A stretch of 64,000 nucleotides of DNA from an uncultured Actinomycetes bacterium (GCA_963743945.1 CAVURO010000010.1:418156-482155); one strand, 5' to 3'; shown: positions 5,853 to 28,179, counted from the first letter of the stretch. Made by a program: numbers and translations. The notes: a model not told the origin generated them from the letters alone.

Positions 5853-7328
5853 TCAGGCAGAGCCGGTCGCATGCATGCTCGCCTCGCCGGGAAGCCCAAA
5901 GACATCGGCGGCGGTGAAGGCCAGTGTCCCCTCCGGAAGATTCTTGAAACCGTCGCGGGCACAAACGGCGTATCCGAGTGCGTCAGGATCCAGATGGAGG
6001 CCATCGGCGACCTTGCGACGAAGGTCATCGACCATCCGTCGAGCGTCGGGGAATTTCGTCCATTTGGCTTCTCCAGCAAGGACGGGAGTCGCCGAACGTT
6101 CAGCGAGAACAAGAGCATCCAGCTGGTTGTTGCTCGATCGATCCCACCACGAGCCAACGGCAACGACATTGCCCTTGACACCAAGGCGCCCGTCGTTCGC
6201 AAGGCGCCGAAGATGTTGGCGGAACACCTCTTCCCAGACACCTCCCATGTGATCGTTGAGTGAGTCGACCAGGACGGGGACGATAGCGGCGCCCAACCCA
6301 CGCTCAATTTCCGTGTGGTATCGAGAGGCAACACCCAGATGGAACGCAAGGAAGGGATCGGCGAGGCGATAGTGACGCAGCCTCGAACGCTCTGGTTCTC
6401 CAACGGGGGCAAGTCTCTCGATGAGGCGCAGATCGACCAGCCGATCAAGGGTTCGGGCCGGTTCTGCCTTGATCCGATCCTTGATCCGCCCGTATTCACT
6501 CACGCCGTTTGCGATGGCATGGAGGACCTGGTGTGCGAATTCACCACGATCAAGATCGGCTCGAAGCACAAAGTCACCTTCGGTCAACAAACGGGCCCCC
6601 GGCTGACAGACCAGCCTGCTGATGTTCGCCTTGACCGATTCCCCCTGATCCCACCATGCCAAATACATCGGAACGCCCCCCACGATGCCGTAGACCAGGG
6701 CTCGGTTCTGAGGCGAGAGTCGTTCGAGCATGAGTGCCGCCTCGTGCGGGGCAAACGGATGGACACCCAGCGAGAGATCGAAGCGGCCATACAGGGCTTC
6801 ACGTTCTTCTTGAATCGCCTGCATGTATCGGACAGCAGAGCCGCACAACAAGATGCGCAGCCTGGTCCTGCCTGCCGAACGGTCGAGAAAGGCGCGTAGC
6901 ACCTTTGGCAGTTCCGGTGACGACGCCACCAACTCCGGGAACTCGTCCAACACCAGCAACAGTGGCCTTTGCTGCGCACGGCCTGCGAGGTCGTCGAGCG
7001 CGTCGTCCCAGCTGACGTAAGGGCGATCCACAAGATCACGCAAGGCCGGACCCACCCCACCGATGGCCTCGATTCCCATGGTCGCGACACCCATGATCGA
7101 TGTGCCCTGAGCCATCTGATGAACGCGCTCGGCCAGTTGCGCAAGCTCTTCAAGCGCGCTGCGGCCTGCTCCCGTATGAAAGATCGACGGCTTGTCTGTC
7201 ATGAACTGTTGGATCAGTGCGGTCTTGCCCACTCGTCGACGGCCCCAGACCACCGCAGATTGTGTCTGTTCAGACCACCATCGTTCGAGTGCCCGCAGCT
7301 CTCGAACACGATTGACGAACACAGCCAT
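5853..7328 (-). CDS. AAA-type ATP-binding protein with DUF234-like C-terminal region
   Basis: 491 aa. Walker A GRRRVGKT and Walker B LLLVLDEF. The layout resembles the archaeal-ATPase/DUF234 family. RBS GGAGGGG lies 5 nt before the ATG. Confidence 0.8.
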   Translation of the reverse strand: MAVFVNRVRELRALERWWSEQTQSAVVWGRRRVGKTALIQQFMTDKPSIFHTGAGRSALEELAQLAERVHQMAQGTSIMGVATMGIEAIGGVGPALRDLVDRPYVSWDDALDDLAGRAQQRPLLLVLDEFPELVASSPELPKVLRAFLDRSAGRTRLRILLCGSAVRYMQAIQEEREALYGRFDLSLGVHPFAPHEAALMLERLSPQNRALVYGIVGGVPMYLAWWDQGESVKANISRLVCQPGARLLTEGDFVLRADLDRGEFAHQVLHAIANGVSEYGRIKDRIKAEPARTLDRLVDLRLIERLAPVGEPERSRLRHYRLADPFLAFHLGVASRYHTEIERGLGAAIVPVLVDSLNDHMGGVWEEVFRQHLRRLANDGRLGVKGNVVAVGSWWDRSSNNQLDALVLAERSATPVLAGEAKWTKFPDARRMVDDLRRKVADGLHLDPDALGYAVCARDGFKNLPEGTLAFTAADVFGLPGEASMHATGSA

Positions 7329-8372: not shown

Positions 8373-10166
8373 CTACGCGCGATAGCCCGCGTCGAACGCC
8401 GCCGTCTCGGCAGCGTCGAGGTTGGCTTCCACGATGTCGAGTCCTCCGTCCCAGAAACCCGGGTCGGCCAGGTCGCAGCCCACGATGTTGCCCAGGGTCT
8501 CGGGAGCCATCGACCCGCCCGACGACAACAGGTTGAGGTAGCGGGGCACGAAGTCCGACCCTTGTTCCTCGTAGCGGCGGTAGACGGACAAGGCCAGGAG
8601 CTGCCCGTAGGAATACGCGTAGACGTAGCCCGGCGTGCCGATGAAGTGCGGGATGTACGACCACCACGACCGGTAGCCCTCGGTGATCTCGACGCTGTCG
8701 CCAACCATCTCCAGCTGGCTTTGCTGCCACAGATCGCCGAATCGCTCGACCGACAACTCGCCCTCGCCCCGGCGGGCCTCGTGGACCAAGCTCTCGAAGC
8801 GGTTCATGGCGGTCTGGCGAAAGACCGTGGCGATGGCTCCCTCGATGTTCTCGGCCAACAGGGCGAGGCGTGCCTGGGGGGAATCGGTCGCCTCCAACAG
8901 ACGTCCGAAGACCACCGTCTCGCCGAACACGGAGGCCGTCTCGGCCAGGGTGAGCGGCGTGGACTGATGGAAGATGCCCTGCTCGCGGGCCATCCACGCA
9001 TGGAGGCCGTGGCCGAGCTCGTGCGCCAGGGTGAGCACGTCCCTGCGTCGGGAGGTGTAGTTGACCAACACGTAGGGGTGCACCGAGGGGACGGTGTACG
9101 AGCAGAACGCGCCGGGTCGCTTGCCGGGGACGGCAGGGGCATCGATCCATCGCTCGTCGAAGAAGCGCCGGGCGACCGTCGCCATCTGCGGCGAGAACGA
9201 CTCGTAGCTGTCGAGCACGAGCGTGCGGGCCTCGTCCCAGCCGATCTGGGTGTCCTCGGTCTCGAGGCTCGCCATGCGGTCGAAGTCGGCGAGGCGGTCG
9301 AGGCCGAGCAACCTGGCCTTCAGCCGGTACCAGCGTTGAGGAATGTCGTTGCGGCGGCGCACGGCGTCGACCAGCGCCTCGACCGACTCGTCACTCGCCT
9401 CGTTCGAGAGGTTGCGGCTCGACAACCAGCTCGGATAGCTCCGCAGCCGGTCGTTGACGGCCTTGTCGTGCAACAAGGTGTTGAAGATGAAGGCCCGGGT
9501 GCGCAGACCGGGTTCGAGGGACGCCGTCACGGCCTCGGCAGAGGCCTGGCGGACGTTGCGATCGGGAGAGGCGAGGCGGGAGAGCGCCTCTTCGAGCGTG
9601 ACGGTTGCGCCGTCGAGGGTGGCCTCGAGGGCAGAGGTCAACTCACCGAAGAGCCGCACCCACGCCGAGGAGCCGGTCACCGACTTCTCGGTCAGGATCT
9701 TCTCCTCCGGCTCGCTCAACAGGTGGGGGCGATAGCGCCGAGCCGCCTCGAGGTGGTGGCGGGCAAAGGTCAATCGGTCATCGGCCAGCAGAGCGGCGAC
9801 CCGATCGTCGTCGAGCGCCGCCCATTCGAGATCGAAGAACAACAGCTCGGTGCTGATGGCCGTCGCCCGCTCCTGCACCCGCTGCACGAGCGCTCCCCGA
9901 GCCGGGTCGGCCATGTTGGTCGAGAACGCCAGGCCGGCATAGGAACCAACCCGACCGATCAGCTCGGATACCTCCGCCAGCCCGGTCATGAACGCCGCCA
10001 GGTCGCCGGCGTCGAAGCCGGCAAGTTGCCCTCGCCTGGACGCCAGCTCGGACGCCCGCCGAGCCGCTTCGTCCAACATCGCGTCGATGGCCTCATCACC
10101 CCTGCCGTCCAGCAGGTGGGTGAGGTCCCACCGGACATCAAGGGCCTCAACCTCGGTTGTCGTCAT
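8373..10166 (-). CDS. pepF: oligoendopeptidase F family (M3B) metallopeptidase
   Basis: 597 aa. Zinc motif HELGHGLH. Length and overall pattern fit PepF. Confidence 0.9.
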   Translation of the reverse strand: MTTTEVEALDVRWDLTHLLDGRGDEAIDAMLDEAARRASELASRRGQLAGFDAGDLAAFMTGLAEVSELIGRVGSYAGLAFSTNMADPARGALVQRVQERATAISTELLFFDLEWAALDDDRVAALLADDRLTFARHHLEAARRYRPHLLSEPEEKILTEKSVTGSSAWVRLFGELTSALEATLDGATVTLEEALSRLASPDRNVRQASAEAVTASLEPGLRTRAFIFNTLLHDKAVNDRLRSYPSWLSSRNLSNEASDESVEALVDAVRRRNDIPQRWYRLKARLLGLDRLADFDRMASLETEDTQIGWDEARTLVLDSYESFSPQMATVARRFFDERWIDAPAVPGKRPGAFCSYTVPSVHPYVLVNYTSRRRDVLTLAHELGHGLHAWMAREQGIFHQSTPLTLAETASVFGETVVFGRLLEATDSPQARLALLAENIEGAIATVFRQTAMNRFESLVHEARRGEGELSVERFGDLWQQSQLEMVGDSVEITEGYRSWWSYIPHFIGTPGYVYAYSYGQLLALSVYRRYEEQGSDFVPRYLNLLSSGGSMAPETLGNIVGCDLADPGFWDGGLDIVEANLDAAETAAFDAGYRA

Positions 10167-10207
10167 GGCCGCCGAGTCTACGAGTGCGAAGCTGTGGCTG
10201 CCGATGA
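10113..10207. repeat. direct repeat copy A (functional pepF codons 1-18 plus ~40 nt upstream)
   Basis: A 40-mer caggtgggtgaggtcccaccggacatcaagggcctcaacc and the next 26 nt are identical to copy B. Similarity decays by ~10207. Confidence 0.9.
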
Positions 10208-10241
10208 AGAGCGAAGGGCTACTTCAAGCCTCCCGTTGATG

Positions 10242-10676
10242 TCAGCCGTCAACCAGGAGTTCGACGTCCACACCGAGGGCCCGGTACGTGCCGAGCGCAC
10301 GTCGGTCACGGGTGACGAGAACGATTCCATGCTCGACCGCCGCCGAACCTACGAGCGCGTCGTAGACGGATCCACCGGCAACCCCGCTCACAACGAGTTG
10401 CGCCAACAGGACACCGGCTCTTTCAGCGGAAAGGAAGCGGCTTTCCGGGAAGTTGGCAGCAATCAAAGCCACCACCGTTGCAGGCGACCGCCGAGCAGGG
10501 GGCGCCAGGCGCGTCAGCACCGAGAACGTCTCGAAGACGGCATGCCCCGCAAGGCCGAGAACCCGGTCGCCGAGTGCTTGAGTCGTCGCCTCGTGCTGTT
10601 GGTGATCGCCGACAACAAGCGCCACCGCCACGCTGGTGTCAACAAGCGCATCGGGGGCCCTACTGCTGGTCGCCAT
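10242..10676 (-). CDS. vapC: PIN-domain ribonuclease toxin VapC
   Basis: MATSSRAPDALVDTSVAVAL start with the conserved acidic D, later SVYDALV and LVTRD. Start at ATG 10676 inside tracked ORF 10242..10715. 17-nt overlap with the upstream antitoxin gene. Confidence 0.8.
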   Translation of the reverse strand: MATSSRAPDALVDTSVAVALVVGDHQQHEATTQALGDRVLGLAGHAVFETFSVLTRLAPPARRSPATVVALIAANFPESRFLSAERAGVLLAQLVVSGVAGGSVYDALVGSAAVEHGIVLVTRDRRALGTYRALGVDVELLVDG

Positions 10677-10893
10677 CACGCAACATTTGAACGTCCTGGT
10701 CGTCGATGGTGACACCCGATGGCGGAATCACCAGACGACCCCCACGCTGCTCCAAACCCTCGCCGGCGATGGGCTCCAGCCGGAGCCCCGTTCCGTCCGC
10801 AACGACCTCGACAACACCTGGTCGCAGTCCCAATCGATCTCGCAATGCCTTGGGAATGACCAAACGTCCTGCCTGATCAATGGTTGCACGCAT
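10660..10893 (-). CDS. vapB: AbrB/SpoVT-type antitoxin VapB
   Basis: MRATIDQAGRLVIPKALRDRLGL is the classic SpoVT/AbrB swapped-hairpin motif. Start at ATG 10893 inside tracked ORF 10660..11010. Confidence 0.8.
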   Translation of the reverse strand: MRATIDQAGRLVIPKALRDRLGLRPGVVEVVADGTGLRLEPIAGEGLEQRGGRLVIPPSGVTIDDQDVQMLRDGDQQ

Positions 10894-10959
10894 GCCATTA
10901 TGATACCAGTAAACTGGCTGAATCCTTGATCCCCCCTTCGACCCAGCCCCACCCCCACA

Positions 10960-11075
10960 GAGCGGCCGTGAGTTCAAGAAATATTGCGTCGTTGGGCTCC
11001 ATCGGCGCATCGTCGTCGAGGGAGGTCATCTTCGCCAAGAACGTCACCGAGACGTTGCACCAGCTGATCCCGCCC
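10960..11075 (+). pseudogene. cysteine desulfurase (sufS-like) gene fragment
   Basis: 11001-11057 matches sufS 15634-15690 at 55 of 57 nt. Translation IGASSSREVIFAKNVTETL versus SufS IGASSSNEVIFAKNVTETL. Weaker protein similarity extends ~40 nt to the left. No start and no continuation. Confidence 0.8.
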
Positions 11076-11347
11076 GTGCTGGTGAACCTCACTGACTTCG
11101 CCTTCGAATCGAGCGCGGATCCGGGCCTTCGGTACGAGGTCAACCGCGGCCCCCTGGCAGCTGGGACGAGATCGCCACCGTGAGACACTACCTGCCCGAA
11201 CGGCGAGAAGGTCCGCCTCGACGCGCTGTTGCAGCTCGAGCTCACCGTCGAGGACCCGTGGGCCCCTGGCTGGGTACCGCTCTACGGCTTCATCGAGCAG
11301 TGCTTCGTCGGGATCGGGCTGGTACTCGACGGGCTCGAAGCCCTCGA

Positions 11348-11431
11348 GTGACTTGAACCTGGTGCCGTTTCGCGACCGTTACCGTCGAGAGAAGGCATCA
11401 GTTTCAAGTTCTGACTTGAATCTGTAGCCGT
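11348..11431. promoter_or_regulatory. candidate operator/promoter region of the AbiEi-like gene
   Basis: 21-bp direct repeats tgacttgaacctggtgccgtt (11348-11368) and tgacttgaatctgtagccgtt (11411-11431). Inverted repeat ttcaagt-tctg-acttgaa at 11402-11419. Another gacttga lies on the opposite strand at 11465-11471. Locally AT-richer. Confidence 0.5.
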
Positions 11432-11460
11432 TATACGACATATGCAGTGGCGTTTCGGCC

Positions 11461-12381
11461 ATGAAGTCAAGTCCGCCGCCAGGCCACTGGCAAAGCCCTG
11501 TCGGTGCTGAGCGACGCGTGCCGGGGTGGGCGCAGGGGGTCGTCGCTGCATTGGCCCGCGATCAACCCAGGGTGGTGACCCGAACAGATGTGGACGCCCT
11601 CCTCCACGAGCTCGGCGTGGTGCGCGGCACCGATGACGCCATCGCTGAGCTGCGGCGGCTCGGCTGGCTCGTGCACCTCGGCATCGCGGGGACGTGGACC
11701 TTCATCCCGCCCGGCCAGGCCGAGGTCGTCGATCCCTACCTCGGCTTGCGAGCCTGGGACCGGATCGCCTCGCCCGGCTTCCACCTCAGCGGCGCCAACG
11801 CCGCGTGGTTCCTCGGGTACCTCGACCGGGCCTCCGACGGCAAGGCGCAGATCCTCCTGCGCGCCGAAACCTTGCTGCCCAAGGGACTTCGCGCTTCGGT
11901 GTCAACGCTTCGGTGTCAACACTCCGACTGCCTTGGTCGCCCAGCCCGCACGCCCTCGAACCAACACAGCGGTACCTCATGCGGCGCCGGCTCGACCTCG
12001 TCCGCTGGTCCGACGGTCTTCCCTGCATCGGGCCCCGAAGCACTTCTGGCCCAGCTCGCGCTCCGCCCCGCCTCCTTCAAGCCTTGGGATGACCTCATCG
12101 CACATCTCCCACGCCTGGTGGAGGACACCGACGACGATCGCCTCACCCAGCTACTCGAAGGGTCCTCCGCCGCAGCCTGGCAGCGCTCTGCCTACCTGCT
12201 CCACGCCGGAGGCTCACCGCAGCGAGGGATCGCCCTGTTCGATGCCGCCCCCCTCGATCGCTGGCCGGTGACCGTCTTCGCCGTCGGCGAGACCACGAAC
12301 GACGATGGGCTGTGGGTTCCGCAGTACGAGCTGGTCGACCGGCTCGTCCACCCGACGCAAGCACAGCTGGGAAAGGCCTGA
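11461..12381 (+). pseudogene. AbiEi-like (type IV TA antitoxin/transcriptional regulator), internally frameshifted
   Basis: The N-terminus VVTRTDVDALLHELG...ELRRLGWLVHLGIAGTWTFIPPG resembles AbiEi wHTH proteins. A 14-bp tandem duplication at 11892-11920 plus an extra C in the run 12033-12036 put ~42 codons out of frame. The alternative frame reads RYLMRRRLDLVRWSDGLPCIGP. Confidence 0.6.
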
Positions 12382-12382
12382 C

Positions 12383-12646
12383 GTGGCAGAGCTCACACGG
12401 GCGCTCATCGTGAACCACGGCCGCGGACGCAACGAGGCCTTCGGACCCGCGCTCCTCGACGTCGCCGAGGCCGAAGCCTGCGCCGAGAAGCTCGCCCGAT
12501 ACCGGCGAGTCCCCTACGCCCGCGACCTCTACGACCTCGCCTGGTTCGCCGGCCGCCACCTCGGCGACGACGAGCGTCGCTGGGCGGCGTGCGACCACCG
12601 ACACCGCGAGGAGATCGAGGCAGCGATCTCGGCTCTCCGGGGCTGA
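12383..12646 (+). pseudogene. truncated AbiEii-like nucleotidyltransferase toxin remnant (87 codons)
   Basis: GTG 12383 lies 1 nt after the AbiEi-like stop. ACAEKLARYRR..ARDLYDLAWFA resembles the C-terminal EK..A...R....RDlyDl signature of AbiEii/DUF1814. The nucleotidyltransferase core is absent. Confidence 0.5.
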
Positions 12647-12750
12647 CCCGGACCGCGCCGGACGGCCGGTCACGTTGGTCACAAAGTTGGTCACGGATTT
12701 CGCAGCACGAGCCGCCAGGCCGACGCAGCGATCCGCTTGTTGAGCGGCGT

Positions 12751-13539
12751 CTACTCCAGCCGGTTGGCCGTGATGAGGACGGTCTCGAATTCCATGACGA
12801 ACGACCCGCCGAAGTCATCGATGGCCGTTCGAATCCCTTCGAACAGCCGCGCTTGGACGACGGCGTCCAGGGCGGTGTGGTCGCTACGTGAGAGAAGCTG
12901 CTCCAACCACTGGTCCCTCTGGTAGGTCTGGCTCCAGGGAAACCACGTCTCGGTCGGGGCATCGAATTCGGGTACCGCCGCGATCGCGTCGAGCTCCCTG
13001 GGCGAGTCCGATCTCCGGTCGGTTGATCGGTTGGCACCGTAGCCCCTGAAGACGGTGTGAACGCCACTCGGCGACGCGCTCGCGTACACCTCGGTGAGAA
13101 CGTCGGCGAGATCGTCGGGCGGAGATCCGCAGTTCCAGATCAGGCCGATTCGTCCCCCGGGGCGCAGCACAGAGGCGGCTTTCGCCGTCGCGACCGGGAG
13201 GTCGAGCCAATGCCACGCCTGCGCCGAGGCCACCCGATCAAACGTGCGGCCGGCGGGCTCCCAATCCTCGAAGGCGCCGACTTCGACGTCGATGCCGTGG
13301 CTGCGAGCGATCTCTGCCATCCGTGGAGCGACTTCCACGCCGAGGACTTTGGCGCCCCGCTCGGCGATCTGTCGCGCCGCTATGCCGGTGCCGCACCCGA
13401 CGTCGAGCACCTTGAGCTCCGACGGTTTCGGACCGAGCAGCGCGTCGATCACCGAGTCGGGGTACCGCGGGCGGTACCGGTCGTAGCGCTGGGCCTCCTG
13501 GTCGAACAACCTCGATCGTTCTCGGGCTAACGGTTTCAT
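12751..13539 (-). CDS. class I SAM-dependent methyltransferase
   Basis: VLDVGCGTGIAARQIAERG (motif I). Start at ATG 13539 (MKPLARERS) inside tracked ORF 12751..13686. Confidence 0.85.
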   Translation of the reverse strand: MKPLARERSRLFDQEAQRYDRYRPRYPDSVIDALLGPKPSELKVLDVGCGTGIAARQIAERGAKVLGVEVAPRMAEIARSHGIDVEVGAFEDWEPAGRTFDRVASAQAWHWLDLPVATAKAASVLRPGGRIGLIWNCGSPPDDLADVLTEVYASASPSGVHTVFRGYGANRSTDRRSDSPRELDAIAAVPEFDAPTETWFPWSQTYQRDQWLEQLLSRSDHTALDAVVQARLFEGIRTAIDDFGGSFVMEFETVLITANRLE

Positions 13540-13775
13540 TCCACGTCCTCTTCGGGCTGAACTCGAGAAACAGCGCGAGGACATCGTCGGCCAAGCAGAA
13601 CGGACACTACAAACTGCCTTCGGGCCGGGCCTGTGAGTTTGTCCTCCTGCGCTCACCGTCGTCGGCCGCCCCGCCCGATTCGGCATTCTGCCCTGGTGTC
13701 AGTGAACGCGCGCGCCGCTTTGTGATAATGGTGCCCCGAACGCCGGCCGGGCGCCCGACACCACCTGCCGCCCAA

Positions 13776-13872
13776 CAGGTGGGTGAGGTCCCACCGGACA
13801 TCAAGGGCCTCAACCCTCGGTTGTCGTCATGGCCGCCGAGTCGACGGGAGCGAGGTGTGGCTGCCGGATGGG
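13776..13872. repeat. direct repeat copy B (relic pepF start, frameshifted)
   Basis: Same orientation as copy A. One extra C after ...ctcaacc makes the relic read MTTTEG-stop from the pseudo-start at 13820. Confidence 0.9.
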
Positions 13873-13988
13873 GCGCGTGGCTCATCCAAGCTCCACGTGA
13901 GGGCCATCCGGAGCCTCACGTGACCATCGTGCCTTTCTGTCATCGTGAGGCAACAGTGCCGAAACGACCGCTGGATACCCTCGCCTCC

Positions 13989-14540
13989 ATGCCGCTGCCC
14001 CTGCTGGTCAACTTCATCGGTGGCTCCGAGGGACCTTGGAGTGTGACGAGCCAGAAAGCTGTCACGGGGCCCGATCTTCCCATGGTTCCGTTCGTACGGG
14101 TTGTGGAAGGCCGAGTGCTCGCTCGACCGCCGGCCGGTTGGGCGCTCCAGGGCGTGACGAGCAACGAACGCTACGTCGAGCGGGCCGAACGGGTCGCCCT
14201 GAGCGATCGGCAGGAACCGCTCGGTCGTTCGGATGCGACCTGCGCGGCGCTCATCCCCATCACGAAATCGCCCGCGTGGTGGGATCTGACCCAGGACCAA
14301 CGACGAGCGATCCTCGAAACCCGCTCTCGCCACATCGCCATCGGTCTGGAATACCTACCGGCGATCGCCCGCCGCCTTCACCACGGTCGTGACATCCGCG
14401 CGGAGTTCGACTTCCTGACCTGGTTCGAGTTCCCGCCCGAGGCAACCGAGGAGTTCGAGGATCTCGTGGGCCGCCTCCGGGCGACCGAGGAGTGGTCCTA
14501 CGTCGAACGGGAGGTGGACATCCGACTCGCTCGCCAATGA
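13989..14540 (+). CDS. chlorite dismutase family protein (short form)
   Basis: 183 aa from ATG 13989. IPITKSPAWWDLTQDQRR, IGLEYLPAIARRLHHGRD, EFDFLTWFEF and TEEWSYVEREVD match the Cld/HemQ-family C-terminal domain. Confidence 0.8.
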   Translation: MPLPLLVNFIGGSEGPWSVTSQKAVTGPDLPMVPFVRVVEGRVLARPPAGWALQGVTSNERYVERAERVALSDRQEPLGRSDATCAALIPITKSPAWWDLTQDQRRAILETRSRHIAIGLEYLPAIARRLHHGRDIRAEFDFLTWFEFPPEATEEFEDLVGRLRATEEWSYVEREVDIRLARQ

Positions 14541-14629: not shown

Positions 14630-15384
<755 letters not shown>

Positions 15385-15388
<4 letters not shown>

Positions 15389-16626
15389 CGCCGGCGGCGC
15401 TCACCCTCGACGTCGAGCGGGTCCGCAAGGACTTTCCGATCTACGACACCTACGCAGGAAGGCCGTTCGTCTTTCTCGACTCCGCTGCGTCGTCCCAGAA
15501 GCCCCGAGCCGTGCTCGATGCGATGACCAACTACTACGAGACCACCCACGCCAACGTGCACCGGGGCGTCTACGCGATTGCGGAGCATGCGACCGAGCTC
15601 TACGAGGGATCCCGGACCAGGATCGCCCGCTTCATCGGCGCATCGTCGTCGAACGAGGTCATCTTCGCCAAGAACGTCACCGAGACGTTGAACCTGGTCG
15701 CCCAGACCTGGGGACGGGCCAACCTTGGACCCGACGACGCCGTGCTGCTCACCGAGATGGAGCACCACGCCAACATCGTGCCCTGGCTCATGTTGGCCGA
15801 ACACATCGGCTTTGAGCTGCGCTACCTTGGCATCACCGAGGACGGTCTGCTCGACCTCTCCGATCTCGACGCGAAGCTCGACGGGGTCAAGTTGGTCGGA
15901 TTGACCGCCATGTCCAACGTGCTCGGAACGCTCACGCCGGTTCGCCGCATTGCCGATGCCGCCCACGCGGCGGGCGCCGTCGTCGTCGTCGACGCAGCCC
16001 AGTACACCCCGCACATGCACACCCGGGTGCACGATCTCGGCGCCGACTTCCTCGGCTTCACCGGCCACAAGATGCTCGGCCCGACCGGTGTCGGCGTGTT
16101 GTGGGGACGAGAGGCGTTGCTGGACGCGATGCCCCCGTTCCTGGGCGGCGGCGACATGATCCGCGATGTCCGCCTCGACGGGTTCACGCCAAACGAGTTG
16201 CCCTGGAAGTTCGAGGCGGGCACACCGCCGATCGCCGAGGCCATCGGGCTGGGCATGGCCATCGACGAGTTGGAGCGCTACGACCTCGACGCCATCCGGG
16301 CCCACGAGATTCAGGTCACGGGCTATGCCCTGGCCTCACTGGCGGATCGCTTCGGCGACGACTTCACCGTCCACGGACCGCTCGACCCGACGCTTCGAGG
16401 TGGGGTGTTGTCCTTTGCCTTCAAGGGCATTCACCCCCACGACCTCTCCCAGGTGCTCGACCAGTCGGGCGTCTGTGTGCGTGCCGGCCACCACTGCGCA
16501 AAGCCCCTCATGCGTCGTCTGGGTGTCGGCGCAACCGCGCGGGCATCCTTTTACGTGTACAACAATGAGGCTGATGTTGACGCGCTGGCCGAAGCGCTTG
16601 TAGTCGCCGCCGATCTGTTCGGCTGA
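15385..16626 (+). CDS. sufS: cysteine desulfurase SufS
   Basis: Start at ATG 15385 (MTPAALTLDVERVRKDFPIY). HANIVPW, FTGHKMLGPTG (PLP lysine) and RAGHHCAKP (active-site Cys) are present. The tracked ORF begins spuriously at 15019. Confidence 0.92.
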
Positions 16627-16645: not shown

Positions 16646-17149
16646 ATGCCTGGCCTCGAAGACCTCTACCGAGAGATCATCCTCGATCACTACCGCAACC
16701 CCCGAAACCGCGGCGAGCTGCCGAGCCCTCCCGCGCATCGGGTCGAGGGGTTCAACCCGCTCTGCGGTGACGAGATCGTGCTGTACGTCGACGTCGATGA
16801 CACCGGCACCGTCTCGGACCTGAAGATCAGCGGACAGGGGTGTTCGATCAGCCAGTCTTCGGCCTCCATGATGTCAGCGGCGATCAAGGGAAAGAGCGTC
16901 GAGGAGGCCCGGGCACTGACCCGTGCGTTCAAGGCGCTCATGTCGATTCACGAGTCGAAGCTCGAAAGCGAGAGCGCGGGGCCGGCACCCGACGGAAGTG
17001 GCACCGACACGCCGGTTCCCGACCCTGCCGTCAAGCTCGGCGACCTCGAAGCCCTGCAGGGCGTGGTCAAGTTTCCCGTGCGAATCAAGTGCGCGACCCT
17101 GTCGTGGAACACGCTCACCCAGGCACTCGACGAGGCCGCCGCAACCTGA
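16646..17149 (+). CDS. sufU: SUF-type Fe-S scaffold SufU (NifU-like N-terminal domain)
   Basis: LYREIILDHYRNPRN, NPLCGD, GQGCSIS and KCATLSW cysteine ligands. Contains a ~30-aa low-complexity insert (ESKLESESAGPAPDGSGTDTPVPDP). Confidence 0.9.
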   Translation: MPGLEDLYREIILDHYRNPRNRGELPSPPAHRVEGFNPLCGDEIVLYVDVDDTGTVSDLKISGQGCSISQSSASMMSAAIKGKSVEEARALTRAFKALMSIHESKLESESAGPAPDGSGTDTPVPDPAVKLGDLEALQGVVKFPVRIKCATLSWNTLTQALDEAAAT

Positions 17150-17199: not shown

Positions 17200-17223
17200 G
17201 ATGTAAGCGTATATGCTTACATC
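17200..17223. promoter_or_regulatory. perfect 24-bp palindrome (candidate operator) overlapping the HTH gene start codon
   Basis: GATGTAAGC-gtatat-GCTTACATC. The ATG of the HTH gene (17213) lies inside the right half. Confidence 0.7.
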
Positions 17224-17806
17224 TGTGATAGCCTCTGAGCTGGTCCACCAGGCGAGAGCACATGCAAACCTGTCCGTTCGCGCTTTGGCCCAGGCATCCG
17301 GCGTCGCTGCAAGCACGATCCACCGTATCGAGCAAGGTGAGCTGAACCCGACCGTCGCCATGCTCGAGCGCATCGTCGAGGCTTCCGGCATGCGGCTCCA
17401 CATCGAGGCCCAGGATGACTACGCCGCCAGTGTCCTGGGGCTGGCTCGCTCCATCCACAAGGACATCAACCGAGGTGACACGAGCTCCCCGGTTCGCAAG
17501 GCCGCCGAACTGGCCCACCGATTTCACCACGCCGAGGGTCACACTCGTCACCGGATGATCGCCGCAGAACCCCCGACGACCGGTGACGCCCGTTGGGATG
17601 CGTTTGTCGCTGCGCTGGCCGAGTGGCTGGCGGTGCAGGCAGGCGACCACGTCCCCCAGTGGGCACGCGATGACACGCGTTACCTTCACCGTGGGTGGTG
17701 GGTCACGCCGATGAAGGCTGTACATGCCTGGGAATATGCCGGAACCCCCGCCTCCTTCCAGCATCGTGGGGTTTACATCCATCGTGACTCGCTGACCAAT
17801 GTGTAG
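17213..17806 (+). CDS. XRE-type HTH protein with ~130-aa C-terminal domain (putative antitoxin/regulator)
   Basis: LSVRALAQASGVAASTIHRIEQGELNPTVAMLERIV is a canonical XRE HTH. The C-terminal domain is unassigned. It lies 8 nt upstream of the nucleotidyltransferase gene. Confidence 0.8.
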   Translation: MLTSVIASELVHQARAHANLSVRALAQASGVAASTIHRIEQGELNPTVAMLERIVEASGMRLHIEAQDDYAASVLGLARSIHKDINRGDTSSPVRKAAELAHRFHHAEGHTRHRMIAAEPPTTGDARWDAFVAALAEWLAVQAGDHVPQWARDDTRYLHRGWWVTPMKAVHAWEYAGTPASFQHRGVYIHRDSLTNV

Positions 17807-17814
17807 AAGCCGCC

Positions 17815-18375
17815 ATGCTCACCCGTGAACGAATCATCGAGCTTTTCGCAGAGCTCAACAATGAGCTTTGCGACATGGGCATCCGAGGTGACATCTTCAT
17901 CGTGGGTGGTGCGGCGATGACACTTGCCTATGACGCCCGCCCTGCCACACGCGACATCGACGGTATTTGGCGCCCCTCCACCGAGGTTCGTGCCGCCGCT
18001 GCCCGGGTCGCTCAACGTCACGATGACCTGGGGCTCGATTGGCTCAACGACGGTGTAAAGGGATTCCTGCCAGGCGATGACCAAGGCAGTTCGAGGGTCG
18101 TCTACGACAACACGTGCCTCACGGTCTCCGCCGCCTCGCCGGAGTACCTGTTGGCCACCAAGCTGTTGGCGAGCCGAGTCAGTCGTGACGAGGATGACAT
18201 CCTCACGCTGTACGACCTCTGTGGGTTCGCCACGACAGACGAGGGGCTCGCACTGATCGAGCGCTACTACCCCGGAAAGCCGATCGAGGCGAAGGTCGGG
18301 TTCTTCCTTCAGGAACTGCTCGAATCAACCGCGGGCCACAGGACAACCCGGTTTCCTGAGGACCCGGTTTCCTGA
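17815..18375 (+). CDS. DUF6036-type minimal nucleotidyltransferase (putative toxin)
   Basis: FIVGGAAMTLAYDARPATRDIDGIW fits the NTase-fold GG-x(n)-D-x-D signature. 186 aa. Confidence 0.7.
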   Translation: MLTRERIIELFAELNNELCDMGIRGDIFIVGGAAMTLAYDARPATRDIDGIWRPSTEVRAAAARVAQRHDDLGLDWLNDGVKGFLPGDDQGSSRVVYDNTCLTVSAASPEYLLATKLLASRVSRDEDDILTLYDLCGFATTDEGLALIERYYPGKPIEAKVGFFLQELLESTAGHRTTRFPEDPVS

Positions 18376-24269: not shown

Positions 24270-25088
24270 CTACGCCAGAGGGTCGGCGAAGGGATCGACG
24301 GAGGCCGATTGCTTGGAGGAACCCGCCTGAGAAAGGGTCGAGGCCTCCTCGTCGCCGAGGTAGGCCGCGTAGCCGTCACGTTCCAGCTCGTGGACCAACT
24401 CGGGTCCTCCGGTTGCGACGATACGACCCTTCACCAGGACGTGGACCACGTCGGGCCGCAGCTCGGTGAGCAGGCGTTGGTAGTGGGTGATGGCCAACAC
24501 GCCCAGGCCGTTCTCGTGGGTCTCGGCTTCGACGCGTCTGCTCACGTCGACGAGGGCATCCACATCAAGGCCCGAGTCGATCTCGTCGAGGATGGCAAAG
24601 CGTGGCCGGAGCACACCCAGTTGCAGCGTCTCGTTGCGCTTCTTCTCACCACCGGAGAGGTCGACGTTCAGGGGCCGAGCGAGGAAACGCTCGTCGAACC
24701 CGATGCGCTCCGCCTCGGTGACCATCAACGCGTGCACGTCGCTGCTCGCGCGTCCCGCGGTGACGAGGGCCTCGTGCAACATCGACTCGAGCGACACACC
24801 TGGCACTTCCGTGGGGTACTGCATCGCGAGGAAGAGGCCGGCCCGGGCGCGCTCCCAGGTGGCCAGGCTCAACAGGTCGAGCCCCTCAAGGGTGACCGAT
24901 CCGCCGAGGACCCGGTAACCGGGCTTGCCCATGAGCACATGCGACAGCGTCGACTTGCCCGAACCGTTTGGCCCCATGACGGCGTGCACCTCGCCGCTTC
25001 GCACAACGAGGTCGATGCCGCGAAGGATCTCTTTGCCGTCGACGCCGGCACAGAGGCCTTCGATGACCAGCTCGCCTGTCGCGTTCAT
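24270..25088 (-). CDS. sufC: Fe-S cluster assembly ATPase SufC (paralog 2)
   Basis: GPNGSGKST, LSGGEKKRNETLQ and AILDEIDSGLD. Carries a ~25-aa C-terminal tail absent from paralog 1. Roughly 45% identical to paralog 1 by eye. Confidence 0.9.
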   Translation of the reverse strand: MNATGELVIEGLCAGVDGKEILRGIDLVVRSGEVHAVMGPNGSGKSTLSHVLMGKPGYRVLGGSVTLEGLDLLSLATWERARAGLFLAMQYPTEVPGVSLESMLHEALVTAGRASSDVHALMVTEAERIGFDERFLARPLNVDLSGGEKKRNETLQLGVLRPRFAILDEIDSGLDVDALVDVSRRVEAETHENGLGVLAITHYQRLLTELRPDVVHVLVKGRIVATGGPELVHELERDGYAAYLGDEEASTLSQAGSSKQSASVDPFADPLA

Positions 25089-25402
25089 GGCAACACCACC
25101 CAGACCGAACCGCCCTCGACCTCGACCTCATAGGTGGGAACCGGTTGCGTCGCCGGCAGGACGTCGGGACACCCGGTCTCCAGCGAGAACGAGCTGCCGT
25201 GCTTCCAGCATTCGATGTGGCGATTCTCCACATGGACCTCACCTTCGCTGAGGGCGATGTTGGCATGACTGCAACGATCGTTGAGGGCGTAGAAGTCCTC
25301 CTCGATGCGGACCAGCACGATCTTCGTCCCCGCCTCGACAAATGGACGAGCGGTGCCGGACGTGATCTCGTCGACGCCGCACAGTCGTGCTCGGACGCTC
25401 AT
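25085..25402 (-). CDS. Rieske [2Fe-2S] ferredoxin-like protein embedded in the suf operon
   Basis: CSH...CWKHGS Rieske ligand pattern. 4-nt overlaps with sufD and sufC. Confidence 0.85.
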   Translation of the reverse strand: MSVRARLCGVDEITSGTARPFVEAGTKIVLVRIEEDFYALNDRCSHANIALSEGEVHVENRHIECWKHGSSFSLETGCPDVLPATQPVPTYEVEVEGGSVWVVLP

Positions 25403-26724
25403 CGGCTTCCCTCCCGGGCAGTGGAGCCCGGCTCCTCGAGCTCTCGGCGGTCGAGCTTGGCGACCACCTCGGCCCGAAGGCGCTCAACCACGCCGGCAAC
25501 CGGGAGGCGCTCGAGCACCTCATCGAAGAATCCCAGCACGATGAGCCGTTCGGCCATCGTCGGTGTCACGCCCCGACTCTCCAGATAGAAGCGCTGCTCC
25601 TCGTCGATCGGGCCAACGGCCGAGGCATGAGAACATCGCACGTCGTTGTTCTCGATCTCCAGCGTGGGGACCGACTCGGCCCAGGCGCCATGGGACAGCG
25701 TGATGTTGCGATTGGTCTGGGAGGCATTGACGCCCGCCCCGTCCTTGCCGATGTGCACGAGACCTGAATAGACGGAGCGAGAATGGCCCTGCACGGCTCC
25801 CTTGAACAACAGGTTGCTGGTCGTGCGCGGCGCGACGTGATGCTGGGTCGTGCGGACATCGTGCATCTGGCCTGCCTCGCCGAAGTAGACGGCCAACATG
25901 GTGGCCGACCCACCCTGGCCCGCCAACGTGGAACCGACACGCGAGCGTGCGTAGTCCCCGCCGAGCGCGACCATCGATGTGTTCAACGTTGCATCGCGCT
26001 CGACGTTGCCCGCCTGGCGGCCCAGCTGCCAGACCCGTGGTCCCAACAGCTGTGCATCGAGGTACGAGACATGTGCGCCGGGCCCGGCATCGAGCTCGAC
26101 CACCGGAATCACCAACGCATCGAGATCACTCGACTCGTGATGCATGAGCACGGTCATCTGGCTGTCGGCGCCCGCCTGGACGACCAGATGGGGACAGGAG
26201 ACTCCGCCGTCCACACTCAGCTGGTGCAGCACGACAAAGGGGGCTTCGACCACGACCCCGGCCGGCACCGCCACGAGGATCGGGTCGACCATCAGCGCGT
26301 CATGCAGGATCGCGATGCCGTCGTCGGCGGCGGGCACGGCCAACGTGCCGAGGCTCTTGGCCGGTCCCTCCCCATCGGCGTCGAGCTCGCCGAGGCGCCC
26401 GAGTTGGACGCCCTTGGCCGCGAGCTCCTCGTCCAGCAGGACATAGGTCACCCAGCCATCACGAACGACAACGACGCCCGCCGCATCCTCCAGCGCGTCG
26501 AGCACCGGTTGGAGCTCGACGGGAACAGCCTTTGCCTGCGCCGGAGGTTCTTCGACGACCGGCGTGTACCGATCGAGGTCGAGGTCGTCGACGCGGCTGT
26601 AGCGCCAGATCTCGGCCTCGGAAGTGGGAAGGGGTGCAGCCGCGAAACGAGCGACAGCGTCGTTGCGACGAGTCCGGAGCCACGCCGGGCCGGCGAGTCC
26701 CGAGACGCCATCAAGGGTGAACAT
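25399..26724 (-). CDS. sufD: Fe-S cluster assembly protein SufD
   Basis: 441 aa directly downstream of sufB. C-terminal SHGAWAESVPTLEIENNDVRCSHASAVGPIDEEQRFYLESRG fits the SufBD family. Confidence 0.9.
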   Translation of the reverse strand: MFTLDGVSGLAGPAWLRTRRNDAVARFAAAPLPTSEAEIWRYSRVDDLDLDRYTPVVEEPPAQAKAVPVELQPVLDALEDAAGVVVVRDGWVTYVLLDEELAAKGVQLGRLGELDADGEGPAKSLGTLAVPAADDGIAILHDALMVDPILVAVPAGVVVEAPFVVLHQLSVDGGVSCPHLVVQAGADSQMTVLMHHESSDLDALVIPVVELDAGPGAHVSYLDAQLLGPRVWQLGRQAGNVERDATLNTSMVALGGDYARSRVGSTLAGQGGSATMLAVYFGEAGQMHDVRTTQHHVAPRTTSNLLFKGAVQGHSRSVYSGLVHIGKDGAGVNASQTNRNITLSHGAWAESVPTLEIENNDVRCSHASAVGPIDEEQRFYLESRGVTPTMAERLIVLGFFDEVLERLPVAGVVERLRAEVVAKLDRRELEEPGSTAREGSR

Positions 26725-26781: not shown

Positions 26782-28179
26782 TCAGCCGACGCTTCCCTCC
26801 ATCTGGAGTTCGATGAGACGACTCCACTCGACCGCGTACTCCATGGGCAGGGTCCGGGTGACGGGCTCGATGAACCCGTTGACGATCATGCCCATGGCCT
26901 GTTCCTGCGAAAGGCCGCGGCTCATGAGGTAGAAGAGCTGCTCGTCGTTCACCTTGGACACGGTTGCCTCATGGCCGACGACCGCATCACGCTCGCCGAT
27001 CTCCATGTACGGATAGGTGTCCGAAACGCTGTCGCCGTCGAGGATGAGTGCATCGCACTGAACGTGGCTCTTGCAGCCGTGGGCACCCTCCTCGACCCGG
27101 ACGAGTCCTCGGTAGCTGGTGCGCCCGCCGTCCTTCGAGATCGACTTGGAGACGATACGACTCGTGGTCTCCGGAGCGGCATGGACCATCTTGGCCCCTG
27201 CGTCCTGATGCTGGCCCGCTCCGGCATAGGCAACCGAGAGCACCTCACCCGAGGCCTTCGGTCCGACCATGTACACGGCGGGGTACTTCATGGTGAGGCG
27301 ACTTCCGATGTTGCCGTCGATCCACTCCATGTGGCCCTCGGCCTCGACCCGGGCCCGCTTGGTCACCAGGTTGAACACGTTGTTCGACCAGTTCTGGATG
27401 GTCGTGTAGGTCACACGAGCGGAGGGCTTGACCACGATCTCGACCACCGCCGAGTGCAGCGAATCGGTCGTGTACACAGGAGCGGAGCAGCCCTCGATGT
27501 AGTGCACCTGGCTACCCTCGTCGGCGATGATGAGCGTGCGCTCGAACTGGCCCATGTTCTCGGCGTTGATGCGGAAGTAGGCCTGCAGCGGCATCTCGAC
27601 GTTGACACCGGGGGGCACGTAGATGAACGACCCGCCCGACCACACGGCCGTGTTCAGGGAGGAGAACTTGTTGTCGTTCGGCGGGATGATCGTGCCGAAG
27701 TAGGCACGAACGATCTCGGGGTACTCACGCAGCGCCGTGTCCATGTCGCAGAAGATCACGCCCTGTTGCTCGAGGTCTTCACGGTTGCGGTGGTAGACCA
27801 CCTCCGACTCGTACTGGGCGGTCACGCCGGCGAGATACTTGCGCTCGGCCTCGGGGATGCCGAGCTTCTCGTAGGTGTTCTTCACCGACTCGGGAAGGTC
27901 GTCCCAGACGTCGACCTGCTTCTCGGTGGGCTTGATGTAATAGAAGATGTCGTCGAAGTAGATCTCGGACATGTCGCCGCCCCAGTTGGGCATGGGCCGA
28001 CGGTCGAAGTAGTTGAGCGAGCGCAGGCGCAGATCGCGCATCCACTCGGGCTCGCCCTTCATCCACGACATCTCCTGCACGATGTCGGCGTTGATCCCAC
28101 GCTTGGGCTTGAAGACGTAGTCCTCGGCGTCACTCCAGCCAAGCTTGTAGCGCCCAATGTCGAGATCGGTCACAGCCAT
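26782..28179 (-). CDS. sufB: Fe-S cluster assembly protein SufB
   Basis: 465 aa. GRYKLGWSD..., [10 protein letters not shown] and [16 protein letters not shown] are typical of SufB. Confidence 0.93.

Follow-up and report, generated by a model that had tools for sequence, protein, structure and literature searches.

Relics of pepF and sufS bracket foreign DNA in a strain-variable islet between pepF and Cld-sufCSU of an uncultured Actinomycetes bacterium

We analysed the DNA between pepF, encoding oligoendopeptidase F, and the divergently oriented Cld-sufC-sufS-sufU genes in a window of 64,000 nucleotides (nt) from an uncultured Actinomycetes bacterium (GCA_963743945.1, CAVURO010000010.1:418156-482155), where the 5' end of pepF recurs as a relic 3.7 kb away. 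The original prediction interpreted this direct repeat as the attL/attR-like ends of one integrated, now decaying element. Our results support a single integrated mobile element only in part: the repeat geometry holds, as do the relic, the empty site and the decayed cargo, whereas the single element does not. The region instead appears to be a strain-variable intergenic islet between divergent core genes, built by general and illegitimate recombination rather than by a site-specific integrase, and as such a case of ordinary genome plasticity. As its origin we favour duplication-insertion followed by loss of the redundant copies, to which we give roughly an even chance of being correct.

The repeat was established by sequence reading, repeat finding, blastn and MAFFT, all in agreement. 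Positions 10097-10203 (copy A) recur in the same orientation at 13759-13866 (copy B) with 100 of 109 nt identical (91.7%, E = 3.75e-36; region searched against the full window by blastn), and no third match is present in the 64 kb. An identical run of 40 nt (10113-10152 and 13776-13815) is followed by one additional C in copy B and then by 26 more identical nt, exactly as first described. The live pepF start codon lies at 10164-10166 on the minus strand, and the start codon of copy B, at 13828-13830, opens a frame that reads MTTTEG and then stops, as had been claimed for the relic. Extension of the similarity past 10203/13866 was not significant (p = 0.11), leftward extension was only marginal (p = 0.02), and similarity as far as the vapC stop was likewise tested and not significant. 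Copy B is nearest to copy A of its own genome (92%), compared with ~87-89% for the relative L098 and for the short allele introduced below (a 2-nt extraction offset being allowed for), and its divergence from copy A is about that between strain alleles. The features of the locus are as follows.

8373..10166, minus strand: intact pepF, M3B oligoendopeptidase F, 597 amino acids (aa), with Pfam domains Peptidase_M3 and Peptidase_M3_N; sister strains have the protein P0001 at 99% identity.
10097..10203, minus strand: repeat copy A, live pepF codons 1-23 and 37 nt upstream of the gene; homologous to L098 up to ~10212.
10225..10917, minus strand: vapBC cassette, boundaries from blastn; also in the short-allele strains.
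10242-10715, minus strand: vapC (Pfam PIN, E = 2e-11).
10660-10893, minus strand: vapB, MazE/AbrB type (Pfam MazE_antitoxin, E = 1.6e-6).
10918..11002, no strand assigned: vapB-upstream DNA present in both alleles, long and short, up to the left breakpoint; an 18-nt indel relative to the short allele.
10996..11061, plus strand: sufS piece, 66 nt; its parent is 15629-15694, in the same orientation as sufS (94% identity, E = 4e-23).
11003..13926, no strand assigned: mosaic specific to the long allele; 295 unrelated nt instead in five short-allele contigs.
11062..11351, plus strand: coding remnant 'X', in frame with the sufS piece; GC content at third codon positions (GC3) as high as 0.97, interrupted by one stop (frame plot, translation).
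11349..11439, plus strand: two 28-nt repeats and a palindrome, operator-like, just 5' of abiEi; self-inverted blastn match at 11351-11409.
11461..12381, plus strand: AbiEi-like antitoxin gene, an open reading frame (ORF) of 306 aa (Pfam AbiEi_1, E = 4e-19).
12305..12646, plus strand: truncated AbiEii (DUF1814 nucleotidyltransferase toxin), 113 aa (PADLOC AbiEii, E = 1.4e-16).
12733..13686, minus strand: class I S-adenosylmethionine (SAM) methyltransferase module, with an intact coding sequence of 262 aa at 12751-13539 (Pfam).
13759..13866, minus strand: repeat copy B, pepF-start relic with an extra base, MTTTEG and stop.
13873..13926, no strand assigned: 54-nt patch found in the long allele only; it stands in for the central part of the ancestral DNA between pepF and Cld, to which it does not align.
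13989..14540, plus strand: Cld-family (chlorite dismutase-like) gene, 183 aa (Pfam; homologues are typically ~180-190 aa).
14630-15388, plus strand: sufC (Pfam; synteny with L003 and L100).
15385-16626, plus strand: sufS, parent of the 66-nt piece (Pfam; synteny with L003 and L100).
16646-17149, plus strand: sufU (Pfam; synteny with L003 and L100).

Sister contigs were found by a PepF protein search (99% and 87% identity) followed by context look-ups with those proteins and with VapB; exact-protein look-ups gave no record for the pepF, sufC and AbiEi products of the window, and that of Cld returned only contig L090. Two structural alleles, long and short, co-exist in this population. L081 and L086-L089, contigs of different samples with ~97% identity to the window, carry the short allele, all five with the order pepF, copy A, vapC, vapB, 295 nt, Cld and all with the same breakpoints relative to the window (11002/13937 by blastn; right edge at ~13927 by alignment). 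Between these common flanks, 2934 nt of the long allele are replaced by 295 unrelated nt, in which no pepF relic is detectable (p = 0.14-0.83 against shuffled sequences). The segment private to the long allele, 11003-13936 by blastn or to ~13926 by alignment, comprises the sufS piece, X, abiE, the methyltransferase, copy B and the 54-nt patch, and vapBC lies outside it. Within the otherwise shared vapB-upstream DNA, the window has an 18-nt insertion at 10930-10947 relative to the short allele. The long allele recurs in the NCBI contig L090 (99.7% identity over 5.2 kb, from sufS to vapB) and in two Logan contigs from other runs, which are 99.8-99.9% identical over the 1.9-2.8 kb they span: both have one end inside copy B and the other inside the sufS piece (L091) or abiEi (L092).

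The empty site, with pepF abutting the Cld region, was found in L098, the only match in the JGI metagenomes to a degenerate pattern for the repeat core, and a normal pepF start. Here an intact pepF start (MTTTEVEALDVRWDL...) faces Cld, the two ATG codons lying 195 nt apart, as against 158 nt between the relic ATG and Cld in the window, and the DNA between the two repeat copies is absent. The L098 intergenic DNA matches copy A to ~-45 and copy B to ~-40, and over the ~62 nt nearest Cld it matches both alleles. Another 52 nt are common to L098 and the short allele, and at this place the window has the 54-nt patch instead. Copy B therefore occupies the place of a pepF start, positioned and oriented relative to Cld like the live start in L098. 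L098 is not a precise recombinant of copies A and B. Judged from these alignments, the short allele corresponds to the empty site with ~1 kb (vapBC and its flanks) inserted at -45 without any duplication, and neither allele is a simple derivative of the other. The short allele was also considered as an excision product and ruled out, given its 295 unrelated nt, its lack of a relic and its retention of 52 nt of ancestral DNA lost in the window.

More distant relatives place the locus in a longer perspective. The best species representatives in GTDB, Acidimicrobiales and Acidimicrobiia metagenome-assembled genomes, reach only 71% PepF identity and were rejected as a source of the empty site as too distant. 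In L003 (71%) and L100 (75%), pepF directly faces sufC-sufS-sufU without Cld, which indicates that the divergent pepF/sufCSU junction is old; the space between pepF and sufCSU is where extra DNA accumulates. Recombination between strains is evidently frequent, since divergence at four-fold degenerate sites between the window and L086 varies from 0% to 7.9% among neighbouring genes.

The second core-gene fragment, the sufS piece, points towards duplication. It is identical to sufS of L086 except at two positions, one within the junction microhomology and the other close to the right end, and away from its ends it differs from the sufS of the window at 2 nt. At 15650-15655, corresponding to 11017-11022 in the relic, the sufS of the window encodes Asn (AAC), and L086 sufS and the relic encode Arg (AGG); because the distant relative L003 also has Arg at this position, the relic appears to preserve the older allele. 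With sufS intact downstream, the presence of a 66-nt piece implies that some duplication of sufS sequence must have occurred, and the same reasoning applies to the pepF start. Both fragments keep their parental orientations, and their order is informative: the sufS piece (10996-11061, plus strand) is followed by the insert and then by the pepF-start relic (13759-13866, minus strand), while the parents are ordered pepF ... sufS. A piece of the distal gene, foreign DNA and a piece of the proximal gene, in this succession, are the mark of a tandem-duplication joint. At the left junction, vapB-upstream DNA meets the interior of sufS at GCTCCAT/GCTTCAT (GCTYCAT; 10996-11002), one junction only, in which 6 of the 7 nt agree.

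The repeat, the empty site, the two alleles with their identical breakpoints, the mosaic modules and the lack of any recombinase are direct observations. In the order and mechanism of events that we infer, a tandem duplication from pepF codon 23 to sufS nt 15694 would have come first, with a foreign block (X, abiE and the methyltransferase) at the new joint. Two routes to it are equally conceivable: sister chromosomes may have been joined illegitimately, or a circular DNA with the same chromosomal stretch and the foreign block may have inserted through a RecA-mediated single crossover (Campbell-type). The first product would have read pepF(A) ... sufS' / foreign block / pepF-start(B) ... Cld-sufC-sufS. 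Redundant copies would then have been deleted, one deletion fusing vapB-upstream DNA to sufS' at the 7-nt microhomology and leaving the 66-nt piece, and a further one removing DNA between copy B and Cld. Each core gene would be left with a single functional copy, and the foreign block would stand between two short relics, the sufS piece and copy B. A Campbell-type donor from another strain would explain both the closeness of the sufS piece to the L086 allele and the divergence of copy B from copy A at the level of strain alleles. We also count in favour of this explanation the modular mosaic itself (methyltransferase copies elsewhere, a truncated AbiEii and the X remnant) and the other duplications and deletions seen in relatives, namely the vapBC paralogue of L086 and L098 and the Cld stump of L082.

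Several observations weigh against duplication-insertion and loss. None of L081-L100 carries an allele with complete duplicated copies, the model requires at least four events, and the 6/7-nt microhomology is weak evidence alone. No source was recognised for X, for the 54-nt patch at 13873-13926 or for the 72 nt at 13687-13758. Copy B has accumulated ~7 private changes in 107 nt compared with 0-1 in 59 nt of the sufS piece (Poisson p ~0.04), counts that fit a single origin only if the donor and recipient strains differed or if copy B decays faster. The upstream flanks of the two vapBC paralogues of L086 differ, and the vapB-upstream DNA of the present locus (10918-11002 together with the 295 nt of the short allele) is not homologous to that of the L086 paralogue, so that the pepF-side cassette (vapBC1) may have arisen either in the same duplication or earlier.

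The alternative that deserves most attention, possible but in our judgement doubtful, is a patchwork import without any large tandem duplication, in which the 295-nt spacer gave way to a linear piece of DNA, donated by a sister strain or some other source, through homology-facilitated illegitimate recombination or end joining, and the 66-nt sufS and 107-nt pepF pieces are templated filler, for instance from microhomology-mediated template switching. Such an import would account for the clean swap of 2934 nt for 295 nt between common flanks, for the microhomology at the left junction and for the place of both local pieces, at the edges of the foreign block or close to them, and it suits strains that are recombination mosaics and a sufS piece closer to the sufS allele of another strain than to that of the window. 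It leaves to coincidence, however, that fillers of 66 and 107 nt stand at both ends in parental orientation and in the order of a tandem joint, and random filler would not be expected to fall exactly where the empty-site relative has its pepF start. A chimeric assembly, in which the relic and the sufS piece are misjoined reads of co-existing strains, is extremely unlikely: both alleles do occur in the same series of sequencing runs, with SRR22387914, SRR22387915, SRR22387920, SRR22388193 and SRR13723387 as the runs that contain them, and short-read assemblers break at such repeats, but the independent contig L090 has the same arrangement, and L091 and L092, from other runs, cover the interior and end inside the repeats as contigs would at real ones.

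Site-specific integration into the first ~55-70 nt of pepF, as originally proposed, with a replacement 5' end supplied by the element, the repeats as attL and attR, and later loss of the integrase and decay of the cargo, now seems unlikely. Direct repeats with an identical core of 40 and 26 nt, the existence of an empty site in which pepF abuts Cld, and a cargo of vapBC, abiE and a methyltransferase typical of mobile islands all speak for it. Yet only the direct repeats, of four features of such islands, are present; a recombinase, edges coinciding with the repeats and related copies with the same ends are all missing. In agreement with the earlier statement that no integrase survives, Pfam and PADLOC detected no recombinase domain, intact or remnant, in annotated genes and larger unannotated ORFs between or beside the repeats. 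The claim of one 3.7-kb island bounded by the repeats fails, as the variable unit is 11003-13936 (or ~13926) and not 10204-13758, and vapBC persists in strains without copy B. Nor does the short allele, with its ancestral intergenic DNA, behave as an excision product. The proposed search for intact relatives of the cargo with an integrase found none: the relatives of the methyltransferase (L093-L096) occur singly, with no integrase, pepF or abiE called on their contigs, the two longer of which extend as far as 8 kb from the gene. By blastn the long-allele block has no match in phages, and its only plasmid matches are weak ones (67-71% identity) to methyltransferase genes on actinobacterial replicons; no tRNA gene lies within 30 kb (1-30000). 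The sufS piece, predicted by duplication, is unexplained by integration; copy B most resembles copy A of the same genome rather than a foreign mimic paired with a native site; and the one other locus hit by the repeat-core pattern is an ordinary pepF start. A variant in which an integrase-less mobile unit 'homes' to the pepF-Cld divergent promoter region, having captured the pepF start as a homology arm for insertion by host RecA, strikes us as very unlikely, and with it the corollary that the vapBC cassette, which the locus shows in three contexts or more, would move by the same route.

The locus can be compared with several known systems. Campbell-type single-crossover integration of circular DNA with chromosomal homology is familiar from F-prime and suicide-plasmid integrants. 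The locus resembles such duplication-insertions in that chromosomal direct repeats flank foreign DNA, a distal-gene fragment precedes a proximal one, no dedicated recombinase is needed and redundant copies are lost; it differs in retaining two short relics only instead of a full duplication, in its extra 54- and 72-nt patches and in its donor circle, which is hypothetical. In naturally transformable bacteria, the process of homology-facilitated illegitimate recombination usually deletes recipient DNA rather than duplicating it. The term itself appears in PMC6382021. This process shares with our locus foreign DNA fixed beside a homologous anchor and a junction with few-nt microhomology, whereas here there is a duplication, with two local gene fragments to explain. 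Integrase-type islands and prophages that rebuild a gene end likewise show a repeat over that end, a gene kept intact through one copy, and defence and toxin-antitoxin cargo; the present locus departs from them in having no integrase, presence/absence edges away from the repeats, composite content and a second core-gene fragment inside. It is also like the hot spots of defence and toxin-antitoxin genes, with flanks conserved to the point that pepF and sufCSU are neighbours even in the 71-75% relatives L003 and L100, and with strain-variable content (vapBC, XRE, abiE, methyltransferase). Unlike typical hot spots, the islet is very small and its content mostly dead.

The gene content between the repeats was largely as first described: domain searches and blastn recovered vapBC, the sufS-like fragment, the truncated AbiEii-like gene and the intact SAM methyltransferase, and most of the cargo has decayed. 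The vapB and vapC ORFs as listed overlap at 10660-10715, with the small antitoxin gene ahead of the PIN toxin gene, the layout of VapBC type II toxin-antitoxin systems. A phmmer search with X against 1.8 billion representatives returned only X itself, and Pfam and PADLOC found nothing in it. For AbiEi, the AbiEi_1 domain was confirmed, and the reported frameshift is plausible rather than proven: the GC3 frame signal slips at ~11900-12000, suggesting that the gene is probably out of frame internally, though a 306-aa ORF is kept. AbiEii has 113 aa against a profile of 280 positions, with two matching stretches, the best-scoring at positions 154-189, and the full-length AbiEii with AbiEi that defines a type IV AbiE system is not present. 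Because of the AbiEii truncation and the AbiEi frame disturbance, we judge the AbiE system non-functional. The 28-nt direct repeats at 11349-11439 are 79% identical, overlap the palindrome and resemble the AbiEi operator repeats of other AbiE systems; autoregulation by AbiEi by way of repeats in the promoter has been described (PMC7319586, PMC3985639).

The methyltransferase retains 147 nt of its own upstream DNA, and over exactly 12733-13686 the module is about 88% (87-89%) nt-identical to copies whose surroundings (L093-L096) are unrelated and contain Arr, APH and SMR genes. These boundaries rest on blastn, as tblastx against the methyltransferase loci was drowned in high-GC noise. The 54-nt patch upstream of Cld holds a palindrome, CACGTGAGG-N11-CCTCACGTG (13894-13922), a perfect 9-bp inverted repeat that is unique in the window, followed by a third half-site, CGTGAGG, at ~13935; this palindrome may be a candidate operator. 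RNA folding of the Cld-upstream patch was no better than that of shuffled sequences (z = -1.4), and scans for consensus sigma-70 promoters and terminators gave nothing useful in the high-GC DNA here.

Beyond the islet, an HTH_XRE gene (197 aa) and then a DUF6036 nucleotidyltransferase gene (186 aa) follow directly after sufU (17213-18375) and resemble a further toxin-antitoxin-like pair on the flank of the suf cluster. About 10 kb away, sufB (26782-28179) and sufD (25399-26724) lie on the minus strand, as does an ORF at 24270-25088, a probable sufC paralogue overlapping blastn matches of 67-71% identity to sufC; with these genes at another site, Cld-sufC-sufS-sufU forms a separate, partly redundant suf unit. 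In an ATPase_2/DUF234 gene (5853-7328 in the window, 7475-8950 in L086), none of 290 four-fold sites differs and the overall nt difference is 0.1%; vapB likewise shows zero differences between the two, and the adjacent pepF differs at 7.9% of four-fold sites. This contrast indicates recent recombination or a local sweep.

A second vapBC paralogue, 89.8% nt-identical to the pepF-side copy, lies between Cld and sufC in L086 (1434-2854) and L098 (977-2280), and the homology of the two cassettes continues 17 nt beyond the vapC stop. Two unannotated ORFs of 141 and 85 aa accompany it, and the DNA just after the Cld stop resembles the 3' end of vapC, a 90-aa ORF listed for L098 (977-1249) reading through it. 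In the lineage with 87% PepF identity (L082 1-640, also L083-L085), Cld is cut to its last ~25 nt and vapC to its 3' end, leaving an orphan vapB and an XRE-type HTH gene. L082 was dropped as proof that vapBC beside pepF is ancient, because it has lost Cld and its ~25-nt stump adjoins the vapC remnant. Three of these four contigs start at one point ~120 nt upstream of vapB, with L082 reaching 111 nt further out, and their common start suggests another repeat or variable point.

The proposed island-borne upstream region of pepF proved correct only in part: the first ~45 nt are native-type in both alleles, and beyond them vapBC replaces the old intergenic region. With only ~45 nt of native upstream DNA and with vapBC on the same strand 75 nt upstream, pepF is probably transcribed with, from or through the vapBC operon. 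The abiE genes would be dead, and of all the cargo in the long-allele block the methyltransferase alone appears to be intact. The locus, a recombination scar of a known sort, implies neither new biology nor a new mechanism, but it offers a worked example of how core-gene fragments inside an 'island' can betray a history of duplication and deletion and can mimic att sites; predictors of islands based on direct repeats would wrongly take it for an integrated element. Co-existing structural alleles of an uncultured population, Acidimicrobiia-like in character, are documented as well, with an empty site, a short and a long islet, a doubled vapBC and a deleted Cld, at a hot spot between pepF and sufCSU that gathers the debris of toxin-antitoxin and defence systems.

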